Shown here piece after piece: positions 1 to 9,396 of a stretch of DNA of 9,396 nt. Each line of letters starts with the position of its first letter. Position 1 is the stretch's first letter. The translations under genes were made by a program, and so were the position numbers. The DNA is from a virus (Duplodnaviria; Heunggongvirae; Uroviricota; Caudoviricetes): the IMG/VR virus record IMGVR_UViG_2681813236_000005, one strand, 5' to 3'. The notes under the pieces are model-generated. The model saw nothing but the letters and a program-made list of their open reading frames with translations. It did not search any database and was not told where the DNA came from.

Positions 1-1281
1 GACGGGAAAATCCTGCAGGCAGATTACAACACGCTGATGGCGGCGGCGAAAAAGGATTATGAAGCGACGCTGAAAAAGCCGAAACAGTCCGGCGTGAAGG
101 TGTCTGCGGGCGATCGTCAGGAAGACAGTGCTCATGCTGCCCTGCTGACGCTTCAGGCTGAACTCCGGACGCTGGAGAAGCATGCCGGAGCGAATGAGAA
201 AATCAGCCAGCAGCGCCGGGATTTGTGGAAGGCGGAGAGTCAGTTCGCGGTACTGGAGGAGGCGGCACAACGTCGCCAGCTGTCCGCACAGGAGAAATCC
301 CTGCTGGCGCATAAAGATGAGACGCTGGAGTACAAACGCCAGCTGGCTGCACTTGGCGATAAGGTCACGTATCAGGAGCGCCTGAATGCGCTGGCGCAGC
401 AGGCGGATAAATTCGCACAGCAGCAACGGGCAAAACGGGCCGCCATTGATGCGAAAAGCCGGGGGCTGACTGACCGGCAGGCAGAACGGGAAGCCACAGA
501 ACAGCGCCTGAAGGAACAGTATGGCGATAATCCGCTGGCGCTGAATAACGTCATGTCAGAGCAGAAAAAGACCTGGGCGGCTGAAGACCAGCTTCGCGGG
601 AACTGGATGGCAGGCCTGAAGTCCGGCTGGAGTGAGTGGGAAGAGAGCGCCACGGACAGTATGTCGCAGGTAAAAAGTGCAGCCACGCAGACCTTTGATG
701 GTATTGCACAGAATATGGCGGCGATGCTGACCGGCAGTGAGCAGAACTGGCGCAGCTTCACCCGTTCCGTGCTGTCCATGATGACAGAAATTCTGCTTAA
801 GCAGGCAATGGTGGGGATTGTCGGGAGTATCGGCAGCGCCATTGGCGGGGCTGTTGGTGGCGGCGCATCCGCGTCAGGCGGTACAGCCATTCAGGCCGCT
901 GCGGCGAAATTCCATTTTGCAACCGGAGGGTTTACGGGAACCGGCGGCAAATATGAGCCAGCGGGGATTGTTCACCGTGGTGAGTTTGTCTTCACGAAGG
1001 AGGCAACCAGCCGGATTGGCGTGGGGAATCTTTACCGGCTGATGCGCGGCTATGCCACCGGCGGTTATGTCGGTACACCGGGCAGCATGGCAGACAGCCG
1101 GTCGCAGGCGTCCGGGACGTTTGAGCAGAATAACCATGTGGTGATTAACAACGACGGCACGAACGGGCAGATAGGGCCACAGGCGCTGAAGGCTGTTTAT
1201 GACGTAGCCCGTAAGGCGGCAATGGATGTTGTGACCGGGCAGATGCGCGATGGTGGTCTGTTCTCCGGAGGTGGACGATGA
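1..1281 (+). CDS. H: Tail tape-measure protein, C-terminal part (5'-partial; the frame is open from base 1, so the gene begins upstream of the window)
   Basis: Frame 1 is open from position 1 to the TGA at 1279-1281; the listed ORF 37..1281 is only the first in-window Met. Translation is Ala/Gln/Arg/Glu-rich and coiled-coil-like, followed by a Gly-rich segment (GSIGSAIGGAVGGGASASGG...TGGFTGTGG), typical of the C-terminus of lambda-type tape-measure proteins. It sits immediately upstream of M-L-K-I-J, as in lambda. Confidence 0.88.
   Translation, partial: DGKILQADYNTLMAAAKKDYEATLKKPKQSGVKVSAGDRQEDSAHAALLTLQAELRTLEKHAGANEKISQQRRDLWKAESQFAVLEEAAQRRQLSAQEKSLLAHKDETLEYKRQLAALGDKVTYQERLNALAQQADKFAQQQRAKRAAIDAKSRGLTDRQAEREATEQRLKEQYGDNPLALNNVMSEQKKTWAAEDQLRGNWMAGLKSGWSEWEESATDSMSQVKSAATQTFDGIAQNMAAMLTGSEQNWRSFTRSVLSMMTEILLKQAMVGIVGSIGSAIGGAVGGGASASGGTAIQAAAAKFHFATGGFTGTGGKYEPAGIVHRGEFVFTKEATSRIGVGNLYRLMRGYATGGYVGTPGSMADSRSQASGTFEQNNHVVINNDGTNGQIGPQALKAVYDVARKAAMDVVTGQMRDGGLFSGGGR
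1267..1272 (+). promoter_or_regulatory. Shine-Dalgarno (GGAGGT) for M, located inside the 3' end of H
   Basis: GGAGGT lies 5 nt upstream of the ATG at 1278. Confidence 0.6.
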
Positions 1282-1607
1282 AAACCTTCCGCTGGAAAGT
1301 GAAACCCGGGATGGATGTGACATCGGCTCCTTCCGTCAGGGAGGTGCGCTTTGGTGATGGCTATTCCCAGCGTGCGCCTGCCGGGCTGAACGCTGACCTG
1401 AAAACGTACAGCGTGACGCTGTCTGTCTCCCGTGAGGAGGCCACGGCGCTGGAGTCGTTTCTGGCAGAGCACGGAGGCTGGAAGGCCTTTCTGTGGACGC
1501 CGCCTTATGGTTACAGGCAGATAAAGGTGACCTGCGCAAAATGGTCGTCGCAGGTCAGTATGTTGCGTGTTGAGTTCAGCGCAGAGTTTAAACAGGTGGT
1601 GAACTGA
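1278..1607 (+). CDS. M: Minor tail protein M (tail tip assembly)
   Basis: 109-aa ORF MKTFRWKVKPGMDV...EFSAEFKQVVN, the same length as and closely resembling lambda gpM as I recall it. Its start overlaps the H stop (ATGA) and there is a good SD upstream. Confidence 0.92.
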   Translation: MKTFRWKVKPGMDVTSAPSVREVRFGDGYSQRAPAGLNADLKTYSVTLSVSREEATALESFLAEHGGWKAFLWTPPYGYRQIKVTCAKWSSQVSMLRVEFSAEFKQVVN

Positions 1608-2305
1608 TGCAGGATATCCGGCAGGAAACACTGAATGAATGCACCCGTGCGGAGCAGTCGGCCAGCGTGGTGCTCTGGGAAATCGATCTGACAGAGGTCG
1701 GTGGAGAACGTTATTTTTTCTGTAATGAGCAGAACGAAAAAGGTGAGCCGGTCACCTGGCAGGGGCGACAGTATCAGCCGTATCCCATTCAGGGGAGCGG
1801 TTTTGAACTGAATGGCAAAGGCACCAGTACGCGCCCCACGCTGACGGTTTCTAACCTGTACGGTATGGTCACCGGGATGGCGGAAGATATGCAGAGTCTG
1901 GTCGGCGGAACGGTGGTCCGGCGTAAGGTTTACGCCCGTTTTCTGGATGCGGTGAACTTCGTCAACGGAAACAGAGACGCCGATCCGGAGCAGGAGGTGA
2001 TCAGCCGCTGGCGCATCGAGCAGTGCAGCGAACTGAGCGCGGTGAGTGCCTCCTTTGTACTGTCCACGCCGACGGAAACGGATGGCGCTGTTTTTCCGGG
2101 ACGTATCATGCTGGCCAACACCTGCACCTGGACCTATCGCGGTGATGAGTGCGGTTATCACGGTCCGGCAGTCGCGGATGAATATGACCAGCTGACGTCC
2201 GATATCACGAAGGATAAATGCAGCAAATGCCTGAGCGGCTGTAAGTTTCGCAATAACGTCGGCAACTTTGGCGGCTTCCTTTCCATTAACAAACTTTCGC
2301 AGTAA
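1607..2305 (+). CDS. L: Minor tail protein L (tail tip assembly; Cys-rich C-terminus)
   Basis: 232-aa ORF, the same length as lambda gpL. Its ATG overlaps the M stop (TGATG). A C-terminal cysteine cluster (CTWTYRGDEC...CSKCLSGC, nt 2123-2242) is present. Position between M and K matches lambda. Confidence 0.92.
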   Translation: MQDIRQETLNECTRAEQSASVVLWEIDLTEVGGERYFFCNEQNEKGEPVTWQGRQYQPYPIQGSGFELNGKGTSTRPTLTVSNLYGMVTGMAEDMQSLVGGTVVRRKVYARFLDAVNFVNGNRDADPEQEVISRWRIEQCSELSAVSASFVLSTPTETDGAVFPGRIMLANTCTWTYRGDECGYHGPAVADEYDQLTSDITKDKCSKCLSGCKFRNNVGNFGGFLSINKLSQ

Positions 2306-2309
2306 ACCC

Positions 2310-3053
2310 ATGACAGAAACAGAATCAGCGATTCTGGCGCACGCCCGGCGATGTGCGCCAGCGGAGTCGTGCGGCTTCGTGGTGAGAGCGCCGGAGGGGG
2401 AAAGATATTTTCCCTGCATGAATATTTCCGGTGAGCCGGAGGGTTATTTCCGGATGTCGCCGGAAGACTGGCTGCAGGCAGAAATGCAGGGTGAGATTGT
2501 GGCGCTGGTCCACAGCCACCCCGGTGGTCTGCCCTGGCTGAGTGAGGCCGACCGGCGGCTGCAGGTGCAGAGTGATTTGCCGTGGTGGCTGGTCTGCCTG
2601 GGCGTGATTCACAAGTTCCGCTGTGTGCCGTATCTCACCGGGCGGCGCTTTGAGCACGGAGTGACGGACTGTTACACGCTGTTCCGGGACGCTTACCATC
2701 TGGCGGGAATTGAGATGCCGGATTTTCATCGCGAGGATGACTGGTGGCGTCACGGTCAGAATCTCTATCTTGACAATATGGAGGCAACGGGTTTTTACCG
2801 TGTCGCACTGACAGAGGCGCAGCCTGGCGACGTGCTGCTGTGCTGCTTTGGTTCATCGGTGCCGAATCATGCCGCCATTTACTGCGGCGACGGCGAGCTG
2901 CTGCACCATATTCCTGAACAACTGAGTAAACGAGAGAGGTACACCGACAAATGGCAGCGACGCACACACTCCCTCTGGCGTCACCGGGCATGGCACGCAT
3001 CTGCCTTTACGGGGATTTGCAACGATTTGGCCGCCGCATCGACCTTCGTGTGA
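2310..3053 (+). CDS. K: Tail assembly protein K (JAB/MPN metalloprotease-like plus NlpC/P60 peptidase-like domains); start uncertain, alternative in-frame start at 2454
   Basis: The ORF carries a JAMM-type motif HSHPGGLPWLSEAD (nt 2511-2552) and an NlpC/P60-like Cys (DCYTLF, nt 2670-2672) with downstream His residues (nt 2868-2870, 2904-2909). The ATG at 2310 lies 4 nt after the L stop; the Met at 2454 would give a 199-aa product, matching the length I recall for the lambda K annotation. The Met at 2268 in the ORF track overlaps L and is unlikely to be the start. Confidence 0.85.
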   Translation: MTETESAILAHARRCAPAESCGFVVRAPEGERYFPCMNISGEPEGYFRMSPEDWLQAEMQGEIVALVHSHPGGLPWLSEADRRLQVQSDLPWWLVCLGVIHKFRCVPYLTGRRFEHGVTDCYTLFRDAYHLAGIEMPDFHREDDWWRHGQNLYLDNMEATGFYRVALTEAQPGDVLLCCFGSSVPNHAAIYCGDGELLHHIPEQLSKRERYTDKWQRRTHSLWRHRAWHASAFTGICNDLAAASTFV

Positions 3054-3598
3054 AAACGGGGGCTGAAGTCATCCGGGCGCTGGCCACACAGCTCCCGGCG
3101 TTTCGTCAGAAACTGAGCGATGGCTGGTATCAGATACGGATTGCCGGGCGTGATACAGGTGAAAACGAATTATCAGCCCGTCTGAATGAGCCGCTGGAAA
3201 ATGGTGCCGTGATCCACATCGTACCGCGTCTGGCGGGTGCTAAAAGTGGCGGTATTTTTCAGGCAGTGCTGGGGGCGGCGCTGATTGCGGTTGCATGGTG
3301 GAACCCTGTGGGCTGGCTGGGGGCCGCGGCTGTATCGGGTATGTATGCGGCAGGGGCCAGTATGATCCTGGGCGGTGTTGCACAGATGCTGGCCCCCAAA
3401 CCCAGAACCCCCCGAACACAGACAACGGATAACGGTAAGCAGAACACCTATTTCTCCTCACTGGATAACATGGTTGCCCAGGGCAATGTTCTGCCTGTTC
3501 TGTACGGTGAAATGCGCGTGGGGTCACGCGTGGTTTCTCAGGAGATCAGCACGGCAGACGAAGGGGACGGTGGTCAGGTTGTGGTGATTGGTCGCTGA
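2951..3598 (+). CDS. I: Tail assembly protein I (ubiquitin-like beta-grasp N-terminal domain, hydrophobic Gly/Ala-rich middle, conserved C-terminus)
   Basis: 215-aa ORF MAATHTLPLASPGMARICLYGDLQRFGRR...GDGGQVVVIGR resembling lambda gpI. It overlaps the 3' end of K by 103 nt in another frame, as in lambda. An SD-like AGAGAGG sits at 2933-2939. Confidence 0.9.
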   Translation: MAATHTLPLASPGMARICLYGDLQRFGRRIDLRVKTGAEVIRALATQLPAFRQKLSDGWYQIRIAGRDTGENELSARLNEPLENGAVIHIVPRLAGAKSGGIFQAVLGAALIAVAWWNPVGWLGAAAVSGMYAAGASMILGGVAQMLAPKPRTPRTQTTDNGKQNTYFSSLDNMVAQGNVLPVLYGEMRVGSRVVSQEISTADEGDGGQVVVIGR

Positions 3599-3616
3599 TG
3601 CAAAATATTTTATGTG

Positions 3617-3644
3617 AAACCGCCTCCGGGCGGTTTTATCGTTT
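3617..3644 (+). terminator. GC-rich hairpin followed by a T-rich tract in the I-J intergenic spacer (candidate intrinsic terminator/attenuator or mRNA-stabilising stem-loop)
   Basis: AAACCGCC (3617-3624), loop TCCG, GGCGGTTT (3629-3636) form a perfect 8-bp inverted repeat, followed by TATCGTTT. The T-tract is on the + strand only. Confidence 0.4.
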
Positions 3645-3646
3645 AT

Positions 3647-3650
3647 GGAG
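3647..3650 (+). promoter_or_regulatory. Shine-Dalgarno (GGAG) for J
   Basis: GGAG lies 8 nt upstream of the ATG at 3659. Confidence 0.55.
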
Positions 3651-3658
3651 CATGACGA

Positions 3659-6600
3659 ATGGGTAAAGGCAGCAGTAAGGGGCATACCCCGCGCGAAGCG
3701 AAGGACAACCTGAAGTCCACGCAGTTGCTGAGTGTGATCGATGCCATCAGCGAAGGGCCGATTGAAGGTCCGGTGGATGGCTTAAAAAGCGTGCTGCTGA
3801 ACAGTACGCCAGTGCTGGACAGTGAGGGGAATACCAACATCGCCGGTGTCACGGTGGTGTTCCGGGCTGGTGAGCAGGAGCAGACTCCGCCGGAGGGATT
3901 TGAATCCTCCGGCTCCGAGACGGTGCTGGGTACGGAAGTGAAATATGACACGCCGATCACCCGCACCATTACGTCTGCAAACATCGACCGTCTGCGCTTT
4001 ACCTTCGGTGTACAGGCACTGGTGGAAACCACCTCAAAGGGTGACAGGAATCCGTCGGAAGTCCGCCTGCTGGTTCAGATACAACGTAACGGTGGCTGGG
4101 TGACGGAAAAAGACATCACCATTAAGGGCAAAACCACCTCGCAGTATCTGGCCTCGGTGGTGGTGGGTAACCTGCCGCCGCGCCCGTTTAATATCCGGAT
4201 GCGCAGGATGACGCCGGACAGCACCACAGACCAGCTGCAGAACAAAACGCTCTGGTCGTCATACACTGAAATCATCGATGTGAAACAGTGCTACCCGAAC
4301 ACGGCACTGGTCGGCGTACAGGTGGATTCGGAGCAGTTCGGCAGCCAGCAGGTGAGCCGTAATTATCATCTGCGCGGGCGTATTCTGCAGGTGCCGTCGA
4401 ACTATAACCCGCAGACGCGGCAATACAGCGGTATCTGGGACGGAACGTTTAAGCCAGCATACAGCAATAACATGGCCTGGTGTCTGTGGGATATGCTGAC
4501 CCATCCACGCTACGGCATGGGGAAACGTCTTGGTGCGGCGGATGTGGACAAATGGGCGCTGTATGTCATCGGCCAGTACTGCGACCAGTCAGTGCCGGAC
4601 GGCTTTGGCGGCACGGAGCCGCGCATCGCCTGTAATGCGTACCTGACCACACAGCGCAAGGCGTGGGATGTGCTCAGTGATTTCTGCTCGGCGATGCGCT
4701 GTATGCCGGTATGGAACGGGCAGACGCTGACGTTCGTGCAGGACCGACCGTCGGATAAGGTGTGGACCTATAACCGCAGTAATGTGGTGATGCCGGATGA
4801 TGGCGCGCCGTTCCGCTACAGCTTCAGCGCCCTGAAAGACCGCCATAATGCCGTTGAGGTGAACTGGATTGACCCGAACAACGGCTGGGAGACGGCGACA
4901 GAGCTTGTGGAGGATACGCAGGCCATTGCCCGTTACGGTCGTAACGTCACGAAGATGGATGCTTTTGGCTGTACCAGCCGGGGGCAGGCACACCGCGCCG
5001 GGCTGTGGCTGATTAAAACGGAACTGCTGGAAACGCAGACCGTGGATTTCAGCGTGGGCGCAGAAGGGCTTCGCCATGTGCCGGGCGATGTTATTGAAAT
5101 CTGCGATGATGACTATGCCGGTATCAGCACCGGTGGTCGCGTGCTGGCGGTGAACAGCCAGACCCGGACGCTGACGCTCGACCGTGAAATCACGCTGCCA
5201 TCCTCCGGCACCACGCTGATAAGCCTGGTTGACGGTGAGGGCAATCCGGTCAGCGTGGAGGTTCAGTCCGTCACCGACGGCGTGAAGGTAAAAGTGAGCC
5301 GTGTTCCTGACGGTGTTGCTGAATACAGCGTATGGGGGCTGAAGCTGCCGACGCTGCGCCAGCGACTGTTCCGCTGCGTGAGTATCCGTGAGAACGATGA
5401 CGGCACGTATGCCATCACCGCCGTGCAGCATGTGCCGGAAAAAGAGGCCATCGTGGATAACGGGGCGCACTTTGACGGCGACCAGAGTGGCACGGTGAAT
5501 GGTGTCACGCCGCCAGCGGTGCAGCACCTGACCGCAGAAGTCACTGCAGACAGCGGGGAATATCAGGTGCTGGCGCGCTGGGACACGCCGAAGGTGGTGA
5601 AGGGCGTGAGCTTCCTGCTTCGCCTGACCGTGGCAGCGGATGACGGCAGTGAGCGGCTGGTCAGCACGGCCCGGACGACGGAAACAACATACCGCTTCAG
5701 GCAGCTGGCGCTGGGGCGGTACACGCTGACAGTCCGGGCAGTAAATGCCTGGGGGCAGCAGGGAGACCCGGCGTCGGTATCGTTCCGGATTGCCGCACCG
5801 GCAGCACCGTCGCGGATTGAGCTGACACCGGGGTATTTTCAGATAACGGCGGTCCCGAAACTGGCTGTATATGACCCGACGGTGCAGTTTGAGTTCTGGT
5901 TCTCGGAAAAACGGATTGCGGATATCAGGCAGGTTGAAACCACAGCCCGCTATCTTGGCACGGCGCTGTACTGGATAGCTGCCAGTATCAATATCAGGCC
6001 GGGCCATGATTATTATTTTTACGTTCGCAGTGTGAACACAGTCGGCAAATCGGCATTCGTGGAGGCTGTTGGTCAGCCGAGTGATGATGCATCCGGCTAT
6101 CTGGATTTTTTCAAAGGCGAGATAGGAAAAACCCATCTGGCTCAGGAGCTGTGGACGCAGATTGATAACGGTCAGCTGGCGCCTGATCTGGCTGAAATCA
6201 GGACGTCCATTACGGATGTCAGCAATGAAATCACACAGACCGTCAATAAGAAACTGGAAGACCAGAGTGCAGCGATCCAGCAGATACAGAAGGTTCAGGT
6301 TGATACAAATAATAACCTGAACAGCATGTGGGCTGTGAAGCTGCAGCAGATGCAGGACGGACGCCTTTATATCGCGGGTATCGGTGCCGGTATTGAGAAC
6401 ACCCCTGACGGCATGCAGAGTCAGGTGCTGCTGGCGGCGGACAGGATTGCGATGGTTAATCCTGCGAATGGCAACACAAAACCGATGTTTGTTGGTCAGG
6501 GCGATCAGATATTCATGAACGACGTGTTCCTGAAGCGCCTGACGGCCCCCACCATTACCAGCGGCGGCAATCCTCCAGCCTTTTCCCTGACGCCGGACGG

Positions 6601-7141
6601 GCGGCTGACGGCGAAAAATGCCGATATCAGCGGTAATGTAAATGCGAACTCCGGAACACTCAACAACGTCACGATTAACCAGAACTGCCGGATTCTGGGA
6701 AAACTGTCTGCCAGCCAGATTGAAGGCGATATTGTCAAAACGGTGGGAAAAGCCTTTCCGAGAAACAGCAGTTATGCCAGCGGTACGATAACGGTCACTG
6801 TGTATGATGATCAGGCTTTTGACCGTCAGATAGTGATTCCACCCGTTCTGTTTCGCGGTGGTAAGCATGAAAACTTCAACAGCAACAACCAACAGTCATA
6901 CTGGTATTCAACCTGTAAGCTGCAGGTACTGAAGAACGGACAGGAAATCTTTCACCAACCTGCGACGGATGTCAGTCGGGTATTTTCATCAGTCATTGAT
7001 ATGCCTGCAGGACACGGGCATGTCACCCTGACTTTCAATGTCTCTTCATATGGCGCTAATAACTGGACGCCAACGAGCAGTATCAGTGACCTTCTTGTTG
7101 TCGTGATGAAGAAATCCACAGCTGGTATCAGTATCAGCTGA
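3659..7141 (+). CDS. J: Central tail fibre / host specificity protein J (tail tip, receptor binding)
   Basis: 1160-aa ORF starting [42 protein letters not shown], the lambda gpJ N-terminus as I recall it. The size is typical of gpJ-family proteins, it follows I as in lambda, and it contains FN3-like modules in the middle. The TGA stop at 7139-7141 lies 2 nt before the N run, so the CDS appears complete. Confidence 0.93.
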
Positions 7142-7143
7142 AT

Positions 7144-7536
7144 NNNNNNNNNNNNNNNNNNNNNNNNNNNNNNNNNNNNNNNNNNNNNNNNNNNNNNNNN
7201 NNNNNNNNNNNNNNNNNNNNNNNNNNNNNNNNNNNNNNNNNNNNNNNNNNNNNNNNNNNNNNNNNNNNNNNNNNNNNNNNNNNNNNNNNNNNNNNNNNNN
7301 NNNNNNNNNNNNNNNNNNNNNNNNNNNNNNNNNNNNNNNNNNNNNNNNNNNNNNNNNNNNNNNNNNNNNNNNNNNNNNNNNNNNNNNNNNNNNNNNNNNN
7401 NNNNNNNNNNNNNNNNNNNNNNNNNNNNNNNNNNNNNNNNNNNNNNNNNNNNNNNNNNNNNNNNNNNNNNNNNNNNNNNNNNNNNNNNNNNNNNNNNNNN
7501 NNNNNNNNNNNNNNNNNNNNNNNNNNNNNNNNNNNN
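7144..7536. other. Assembly gap (393 consecutive N); not biological sequence
   Basis: Uninterrupted run of n characters. Confidence 0.99.
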
Positions 7537-8430
7537 GCCGGACAGGCTGCGACGTCGGCTCAGGAGGCTTCTTCCGGCGCAGGAACGGCATCAGCAAAGG
7601 CCGCTGAGGCATCAAAAAGTGCTGCCGCTGCAGAGTCCTCAAAAAGCGCGGCGGCCACCAGTGCCGGTGCCGCGAAAACGTCAGAAACGAATGCGGCAGC
7701 GTCACAACAATCAGCCGCCACGTCTGCATCCACCGCGACCTCGAAAGCGTCAGAAGCTGCCACGTCAGCCAGGGATGCGGCGGCCTCAAAAGAGGCTGCA
7801 AAATCATCAGAAACGAGCGCAGCCTCGAGCGCCGGTAGCGCAGCTTCCTCGGCAACGGCGGCAGGAAATTCCGCGAAGGCGGCAAAGACGTCTGAGACGA
7901 ACGCCAGGTCTTCTGAAACGGCAGCGGAACAGAGTGCCTCCGCAGCAGCAGGCTCAGAAACTGCTGCTGCATCATCGTCCCGTGAGGCGTCAGTTAAAGC
8001 GGAGGAGGCCTCAGCCAGTGCCACCGCCGCCGGAAAATCGGCAGAAAGTGCCGCATCGTCCGCTTCAGCAGCCACAATGAAGGCTGGCGAAGCCACTGAA
8101 CAGGCCACTGCAGCAGCGAGGTCTGCTTCCGCAGCGAGGACATCCGAGACGAACGCGAAAGCGTCGGAAACCCGTGCAGAATCTTCAGAAACGGCTGCTG
8201 TATCGTCCGCCAGTTCGGCGGCGTCATCAGCATCATCGGCGTCAGCTTCAAAAGATGAGGCGGCAAGGCTGGCGTCAGAGGCGCAGGGCAGTGCCACGAC
8301 GGCATCCGCGAAGGCGACAGAGGCAGCTGGCAGTGCGACAGCGGCAGCACAGAGCAAAAGCACGGCAGAATCCGCGGCAACGCGCGCTGAGACTGCGGCA
8401 AAACGGGCGGAGGATATTGCATCTGCCGTG
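7537..8430 (+). repeat. Imperfect in-frame repeat tract encoding Ala/Ser/Thr-rich units (KTSETNA-containing, roughly 70-85 codons apart) within the tail-fibre shaft
   Basis: Related DNA segments recur at about 7672-7700, 7881-7910 and 8137-8165 (gcgaaaacgtcagaaacgaatgcg / gcaaagacgtctgagacgaacgcc / acatccgagacgaacgcgaaagcg). Composition is strongly biased (GCN/TCN/ACN codons), and all three frames on both strands are nearly stop-free here. Confidence 0.6.
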
Positions 8431-9396
8431 GCGCTTGAGGATGCGAGCACGACGAAAAAGGGGATAGTCCAGCTCAGCAGTGCAACTAACAGTACATCTG
8501 AAACACTTGCCGCGACACCAAAGGCCGTAAAAGCCGCCTGTGAGAATGCTGAGAAACGACTGCAGAAAGATAAGAACGGTGCGGATGTCCCCGACAAAGA
8601 CACCTTTACGAAAAATATTGGTGCCTGCCGTGCCTTCGGTGGGGCCGTAAGCACAACGACAGGAGACTGGACGACCGCACAGTTTATCGGGTGGCTGGAT
8701 TCTCAGGGCGCATTTAACCATCCATACTGGATGTGCAAGGGCTCCTGGTCTTACGGTAATAATAAAATCATCACGGATACGGGCTGCGGAAATATTCATC
8801 TCGCCGGCGCTGTCATTGAGGTGATGGGGATAAAGTCAGCGATGACGATCCGCATAACCACACCGACAACATCCAGCGGAAGTGGAACGGCGAATGCGCA
8901 GTTTACCTATATTAATCATGGTGATGGTTATTCCCCTGGCTGGCGTCGTGACTACAACACGAAAAACAAGCCACCGGCCTTTGCGCTGGGAAAAACCGGG
9001 GAAACGCTCGCCGATACAGATGCCGTCGCCTGGAACCTGGACAGTGGCGCTTATTGTGCACAGGATGGTGGCGCATCATCCTTAATTCTTCATTTTAATA
9101 CAGGGGAAGGCAGCTGCCCCGCGGTCCAGTTTCGGGTGAATTACCGGAATGGCGGGATATTTTACCGCTCCGCCCGTGATGGCTATGGCTTTGAGGCGGA
9201 CTGGGAGCGTCTGTTCACGACAACGGGCGGGACCCTGGAAGGTGCTGTGGGTATCGGTGCACAGAATACGCTGGGCGGCCATTCACTTGCGCTGGGGAGG
9301 GGCGACACAGGCCTGAAACAAAACGGCGACGGTAATCTTGATGTTTACGCCGGTAACGCACGTGTAATGCGCTTTACAAACGGCAGCATTCAGGTC
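7537..9396 (+). CDS. stf: Side tail fibre protein (lambda Stf-like), internal fragment: 5' end lost in the gap, 3' end beyond the window
   Basis: The frame starting at 7537 is open for all 620 codons to 9396. It was not reported in the ORF track because it has neither an in-window start nor a stop. Translation is Ala/Ser/Thr-rich with recurring KTSETNA units, then AEDIASAVALEDASTTKKGIVQLSSATNSTSETLAATPKAVK, a conserved phage tail-fibre motif, then a Cys/Gly/aromatic-containing distal domain. Position downstream of J matches the lambda stf locus. Confidence 0.85.

Follow-up and report, generated by a model that had tools for sequence, protein, structure and literature searches.

We studied a stretch of DNA of 9,396 nt (the window) that holds a complete gene J, a run of Ns and a fragment of the tail-fibre gene stf (Table 1). 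The J product matched the Pfam families FNIII-A_GpJ, Phage-tail_3, Ig_J, Phage_Tail_Tip and Ig_GpJ_C, and its counterpart in related genomes is annotated as gpJ. The N run comprises exactly 393 N and is the only one in the window. A comparison with public records showed that the window is byte-identical, Ns included, to the complete NCBI WGS record LONK01000048.1 (9396 b, assembly GCA_001575775.1); since the window is the whole deposited record, the Ns mark a gap within that scaffold, and the two ends of the window coincide with those of the contig.

Table 1. Features at and around the N run, in window coordinates.
Feature	Position	Strand	Remarks
Gene J	3659..7141	+	Complete ORF, 1160 aa, stop TGA 7139-7141
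First two bases (AT) of the J-stf spacer	7142..7143	+	Remaining spacer hidden
Scaffold gap, 393 N	7144..7536	none	N run; inferred content ~530 nt
stf codons 159-778 of ~861	7537..9396	+	Open frame, 98% identity to L001/L003

A previous reading of the letters alone (the sequence-only reading) had noted that J ends 2 nt before the N run and that the sequence resumes inside a Stf-like ORF without a start codon. Both observations were borne out: the J stop codon, the dinucleotide AT and the first N follow directly upon each other, and the frame open after the gap encodes 620 Ala/Ser-rich amino acids with no start codon, beginning at codon 159 of an 861-codon gene as known from relatives (see below). 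The stf fragment is thus cut at its 5' end by the gap and at its 3' end by the end of the contig, and its 620-aa translation gave no Pfam match at E <= 0.01. Gene calls on LONK01000048.1 differ from this assignment: they consist of an antisense 265-aa ORF at window positions 7560..8357 (-), which lies in the Ala/Ser-rich stretch of stf, and a gene of 323 aa, truncated at its 5' end, at 8428..9396 (+) with the family PF03406 (Phage_fiber_2). These are probably two wrong calls where one stf fragment belongs, made because the start codon is hidden in the gap.

Relatives that read through the junction

A megablast search with window positions 6300..8400 against 5426 complete E. coli genomes revealed two architectures. 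The closest records, from MS 119-7, N18-04097 and SA31-1, were 98.5-99.3% identical to the query over a span of 2217-2238 nt and presented only gpJ and the tail-fibre gene; records of about 88% identity spanned about 2910 nt and carried an Ail/Lom gene in addition. The prophages of MS 119-7, SA31-1 and N18-04097 (L001-L003; NZ_CP146653.1, NZ_CP076276.1 and NZ_CP047277.1) match the window collinearly at 97-98% identity over the tail modules (tape-measure gene, M, L, K, I, J and stf). Their J agrees with that of the window at 100% over the last 530 nt, and their stf has 861 codons and is followed by tfa. They are located at different chromosomal sites, either beside a truncated ydfJ gene or beside tRNA-Ser/hyaA, and therefore do not represent one inherited prophage.

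All three genomes are closed and without a gap, and they have 530 nt where the window has 393 N. Window positions 1..7143 aligned to 708..7844 of L001-L003 with 97.0-97.6% identity, and positions 7537..9396 aligned to 8375..10234 with about 98% identity, gapless in L001 and L003; the equivalent of the gap is therefore 7845..8374 in their coordinates. Their J stops at 7842, and the 58-nt spacer from there to the stf start at 7901 holds no gene.

Three further records agreed with this arrangement. The draft contig L007 (AASYUF010000091.1) differs from window positions 3185..7143 by 1 mismatch in 3959 nt and extends into the gap interval by 497 nt, which comprise the rest of the 58-nt spacer and then 147 codons of a gene of the PF08400 family. 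The contig L005 (NLHR01000026.1) is 99.35% identical to window positions 1596..7143 and has 530 nt before the right flank resumes; the gap-equivalent interval of L004, an IMG/VR contig that shares an exact 44-mer from the end of J with the window, is also 530 nt long. We aligned seven gap-equivalent segments, those of L001-L005 and L007 together with that of a second SA31-1 prophage (L008). The alignment had 0 indels, identities of 97.5-100% and the same stf ATG in all segments. Six of them span the whole interval, each with exactly 530 nt, and the seventh (L007) covers the first 497 nt, over which it is 100% identical to L005. The layout is the same in the seven uninterrupted relatives: J, a spacer of 58 nt and stf, without lom.

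Note that L005 resembles the window in one part only. Its right flank is just 93.5% identical, and window positions 1..1595 (C-terminus of the tape-measure gene, and M) found no megablast-level match in it, position 1596 being the end of gene M. These changes of identity are putative mosaic recombination boundaries at gene borders.

J has a variable, prophage-specific 3' part of ~580 nt, which is presumed to be the receptor-binding end. A 100% match to the last 530 nt was present in only 3 of the 5426 complete E. coli genomes, the next best being 94.5%, and an exact look-up of the 1160-aa J protein found it identical in two other draft assemblies, L007 and L005. The two SA31-1 prophages also differ at this place: their tail modules are nearly identical (mostly 93-100% in 100-nt bins), with a sharp divergence (47-86% identity) confined to the ~580 nt at the end of J (L002 7260..7840), and downstream, in stf and tfa, almost all bins are again 93-100% identical.

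Judged from these relatives, the hidden piece would most likely consist of a further 56 nt of spacer with a terminator-like hairpin, followed by stf codons 1-158. In L001 the complete spacer has the sequence ATGTTCAGAAACCAGACCGGGTGCCAGAAATGGCACCTTTTTTATTTGTGGAACGAAT, with the terminator-like hairpin and a T-run, and the first 158 stf codons of the relatives start with MAVKISGVLKDGAGKPVQNC. The distance from the stf start to the equivalent of the right gap edge (8375-7901) is 474 nt or 158 codons, so that stf codon 159 begins, in frame, at window position 7537. The tail-fibre gene had indeed been expected to have its 5' end hidden, and this was confirmed: codon 159 of the 861-codon ORF of the relatives is the first one visible. 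PF08400, the N-terminal domain of prophage tail fibres, occupies amino acids 1-134 (E = 6e-73 in L001 and 5e-74 in L007); the whole domain and the start of the Ala/Ser-rich part would thus most likely lie inside the gap.

The assignment of the visible fragment to stf is given by the gene next to tfa. The stf ORF of L001 is unbroken (7901..10486, 861 codons) and tfa begins at 10490, 3 nt after the ORF; window positions 7537..9396 are collinear, gapless and 98% identical with codons 159-778 of this tfa-adjoining ORF in L001 and L003, which places tfa beyond the end of the window. RefSeq annotates stf of the closed genomes (L001, and also L002, L003 and L008) as a pseudogene with a missing C-terminus (7901..9463), with about 1 kb up to tfa left without annotation. 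The pseudogene call is probably an artefact, arising from an unfamiliar C-terminal part of this tail fibre.

A repeated segment at the break

The 530 nt that correspond to the gap are found at 14401 places in 4856 of the 5426 complete E. coli genomes, with a median of 2 and a maximum of 14. In the same genomes, the 530 nt to the left are present at 4329 places and the 530 nt to the right at 6291, with a median of 1 each. The hidden segment is the most repeated one of the region, and its excess of copies over the flanks pertains to related genomes, not to the source strain. SA31-1 gives an example of how such copies coexist: its two prophages, L002 and L008, are 100% identical for 339 nt, beginning 38 nt before the J stop codon, and hence unique sequence ends where the left contig of the window ends. 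The contig of L007, an independent short-read assembly, also ends within the hidden segment. Tandem or direct repeats within the Ala/Ser-rich region of stf were considered as a cause and discarded: TRF found nothing, and the direct repeats were at most 44 nt long and 60-79% identical, which is too weak.

Taking together that the N run lies in a draft record and that its flanks are collinear, in order and orientation, with L001-L005, we consider it very probable that the run is a scaffold gap caused by a repeat, over a J-stf junction of ~530 nt without lom, in the draft assembly of an E. coli lambdoid prophage. The spacer between J and stf and the conserved 5' module of stf would be nearly identical among several lambdoid prophages of one genome, and a short-read assembler would be unable to resolve the segment from the J stop codon on. 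The unique flanks would then have been joined by read pairs and the distance between them written as an estimated 393 N. Presumably the source strain carries the same ~530 nt as its relatives, with stf codons 1-158 in frame with position 7537 and J directly adjoining stf, with neither lom nor another moron between them, and the repeat may well be what broke this particular assembly. The hidden bases are unreadable and their content is deduced from the relatives; a junction inside the gap is conceivable because lambdoid tail regions are mosaic, as seen in L005 with its left flank at 99.35% and its right flank at 93.5% identity.

A common repeat could also have led to a wrong join, in which the two sides of the gap come from different co-resident prophages and the stf fragment does not belong to this J. 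Most E. coli genomes have more than one copy of the hidden segment, prophages of one genome can share it without a difference, and the best matches of the right flank (100%, in E21845/O/A and MB07081) are partly from other strains than those of the left flank. We nevertheless regard a mis-scaffold as very unlikely: in SA31-1 one and the same prophage (L002) matches the left 530 nt with 100% identity and the right 530 nt with 99.8%, 530 nt apart, and the same combination of left and right flanks is present in MS 119-7 and N18-04097. Even if the join were wrong, what follows J would be the spacer and the N-terminus of stf, not lom.

The gap is, on the repeat-caused reading, no biological feature but an artefact of assembly in phage sequence that is ordinary and well known, and it implies no new biology. 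It matters for annotation only, as it removes the start codon of stf and the PF08400 domain that defines the gene.

The ends of the record may have a similar origin. Both contig ends fall inside genes, the tape-measure gene at position 1 and stf codon 778 at position 9396, and the equivalent of the right end in SA31-1 (L002 9220..10720) is 99-100% identical between the two co-resident prophages. The contig ends probably mark repeats too.

Gap length and the lom cassette

The 393 N fall 137 nt below the 530 nt of the relatives. If the 393 were exact and the spacer were that of the relatives, stf would start at position 7200, which is 337 nt before 7537 and not a multiple of 3; the N count is for this reason best read as a size estimate by the scaffolder. 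The sequence-only reading had proposed that the missing sequence is longer than 393 nt, and this is probably so, the six spanning relatives all having 530 nt. It had also taken the gap length for a placeholder, which holds in the sense that the number is not exact, given the reading frame; the value resembles, as far as can be inferred, a scaffolder's estimate and no fixed placeholder.

Alternatively, the N count might be exact, with 393 nt of real sequence, a net deletion of 137 nt compared with all relatives and an stf that is frameshifted, truncated or started elsewhere; the Ns could in that case derive from masking or from a reference-guided consensus instead of scaffolding. It is true that 393 is no conventional placeholder value, that some sequence collections mask with N runs of true length, and that none of the evidence gives the true distance in the source strain. 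We judge an exact count to be highly unlikely, and a true-length mask likewise unlikely, in view of the six spanning relatives with exactly 530 nt and the seven segments aligned without an indel. In addition, 137 is not a multiple of 3 and its loss would break stf, yet the frame is intact for 620 codons past the gap, and the near-identical L007 has no deletion in its first 497 nt.

The sequence-only reading had further supposed that a lom-like outer-membrane gene or another moron is hidden together with the 5' end of stf, as in lambda; the true gap would in that case be about 1.2 kb or more. Of this interpretation the hidden stf 5' end and the too short gap stood, and the hidden lom or cargo gene did not; we consider the latter most likely wrong and the lambda-like content as a whole extremely improbable. 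The order J-lom-stf does exist in lambda and in many E. coli prophages, among them L009, whose interval from J to stf codon 159 is 1202 nt and to which the window flanks match at about 91%. An Ail/Lom ORF (PF06316) between J and stf was present, however, only in relatives at 87-91% identity; it was absent in the seven close relatives, the bases of the window itself being unreadable at this place. All relatives with more than 94% identity on the 3' end of J lack lom, including the three complete genomes, the only ones, with a 100% identical J 3' end, and so do the two contigs with an identical J protein, of which L007, with its single mismatch in 3959 nt, goes from J through the 58-nt spacer directly to stf. 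In all seven uninterrupted relatives J directly adjoined the tail-fibre ORF, the arrangement that the sequence-only reading had itself named as speaking against hidden cargo. Instead of the ~1.2 kb of the lambda-type interval, the window has 393 N (an estimate) and the close relatives 530 nt, and 393 is far closer to 530 than to 1202. Three Ail/Lom proteins (lambda Lom, L009 Lom and the Ail-like protein of L005) gave 0 tblastn matches in the window, L001-L004, L007 and L008. The visible AT after the J stop codon is compatible with both layouts and was uninformative as a discriminator: the lom-less relatives and the lom-containing L009 all read TGAATGTT. A small moron other than lom between the post-J hairpin/T-run and the stf start, or a recombination junction giving a hybrid stf N-terminus, is conceivable because the region is mosaic and the hidden bases are unreadable, and it has only a minimal probability.

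In the classical picture lom is a moron. When the junction of L001, which lacks lom, was aligned with those of L009 and lambda, which have it, lom proved to be a discrete cassette of about 672 nt that comprises an RBS, the ORF and a hairpin/T-run of its own, located between the T-run of the post-J hairpin and a conserved 'TGTGGnnnGAAT ATG' stf start; the close relatives of the window have an empty lom site. In the lambda genome (NC_001416) J occupies 15505-18903, lom 18965-19585 and orf-401 begins at 19650. Lambda shares with the window region the gene order of the tail tip module, an stf that begins with the same MAVKISGVLKDG and the 'TGTGGnnnGAAT ATG' context, and it differs from the closest relatives of the window in that the lom cassette is inserted between the post-J hairpin and the stf start, where theirs is an empty site. 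The 3' end of the window's J is 77% identical to lambda over 6325-6675 and has no match beyond.

The lom-less layout is also known from phages. Phage 21 (OL657228.1), mEp460, ev017 and 4A7 have only a short, terminator-bearing spacer between J and the side tail fibre gene, and the annotation of phage 21 gives a terminator and an RBS for the J-stf junction. A 258-nt junction query retrieved 22 phage records at >= 80% coverage, the best records listed being 89-92% identical. These lom-less phages are only about 90% identical, and the junction of the window, which is not visible, was inferred from the closer prophage relatives. Of the two common layouts, J-lom-stf is the one in lambda. The window provides a caution against presuming lambda gene order, lom being an optional cassette and the nearest relatives having an empty site.

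A lom-like gene was also found at another place. L005 carries at 216..752 an Ail/Lom-family gene of 178 aa, about 31% identical to both lambda Lom and L009 Lom, that is positioned just upstream of the tape-measure gene and not after J; a lom-like moron can therefore sit elsewhere in the tail operon. The window begins within the tape-measure gene, that is, past this position.

In L009 (2343..3072) and L010 (3905..4650), two hairpin/T-run elements flank the lom cassette; the first follows J, the second lom itself. The 64-nt spacer between lom and stf is almost identical in lambda and L009, though their Lom proteins are only 47% identical.
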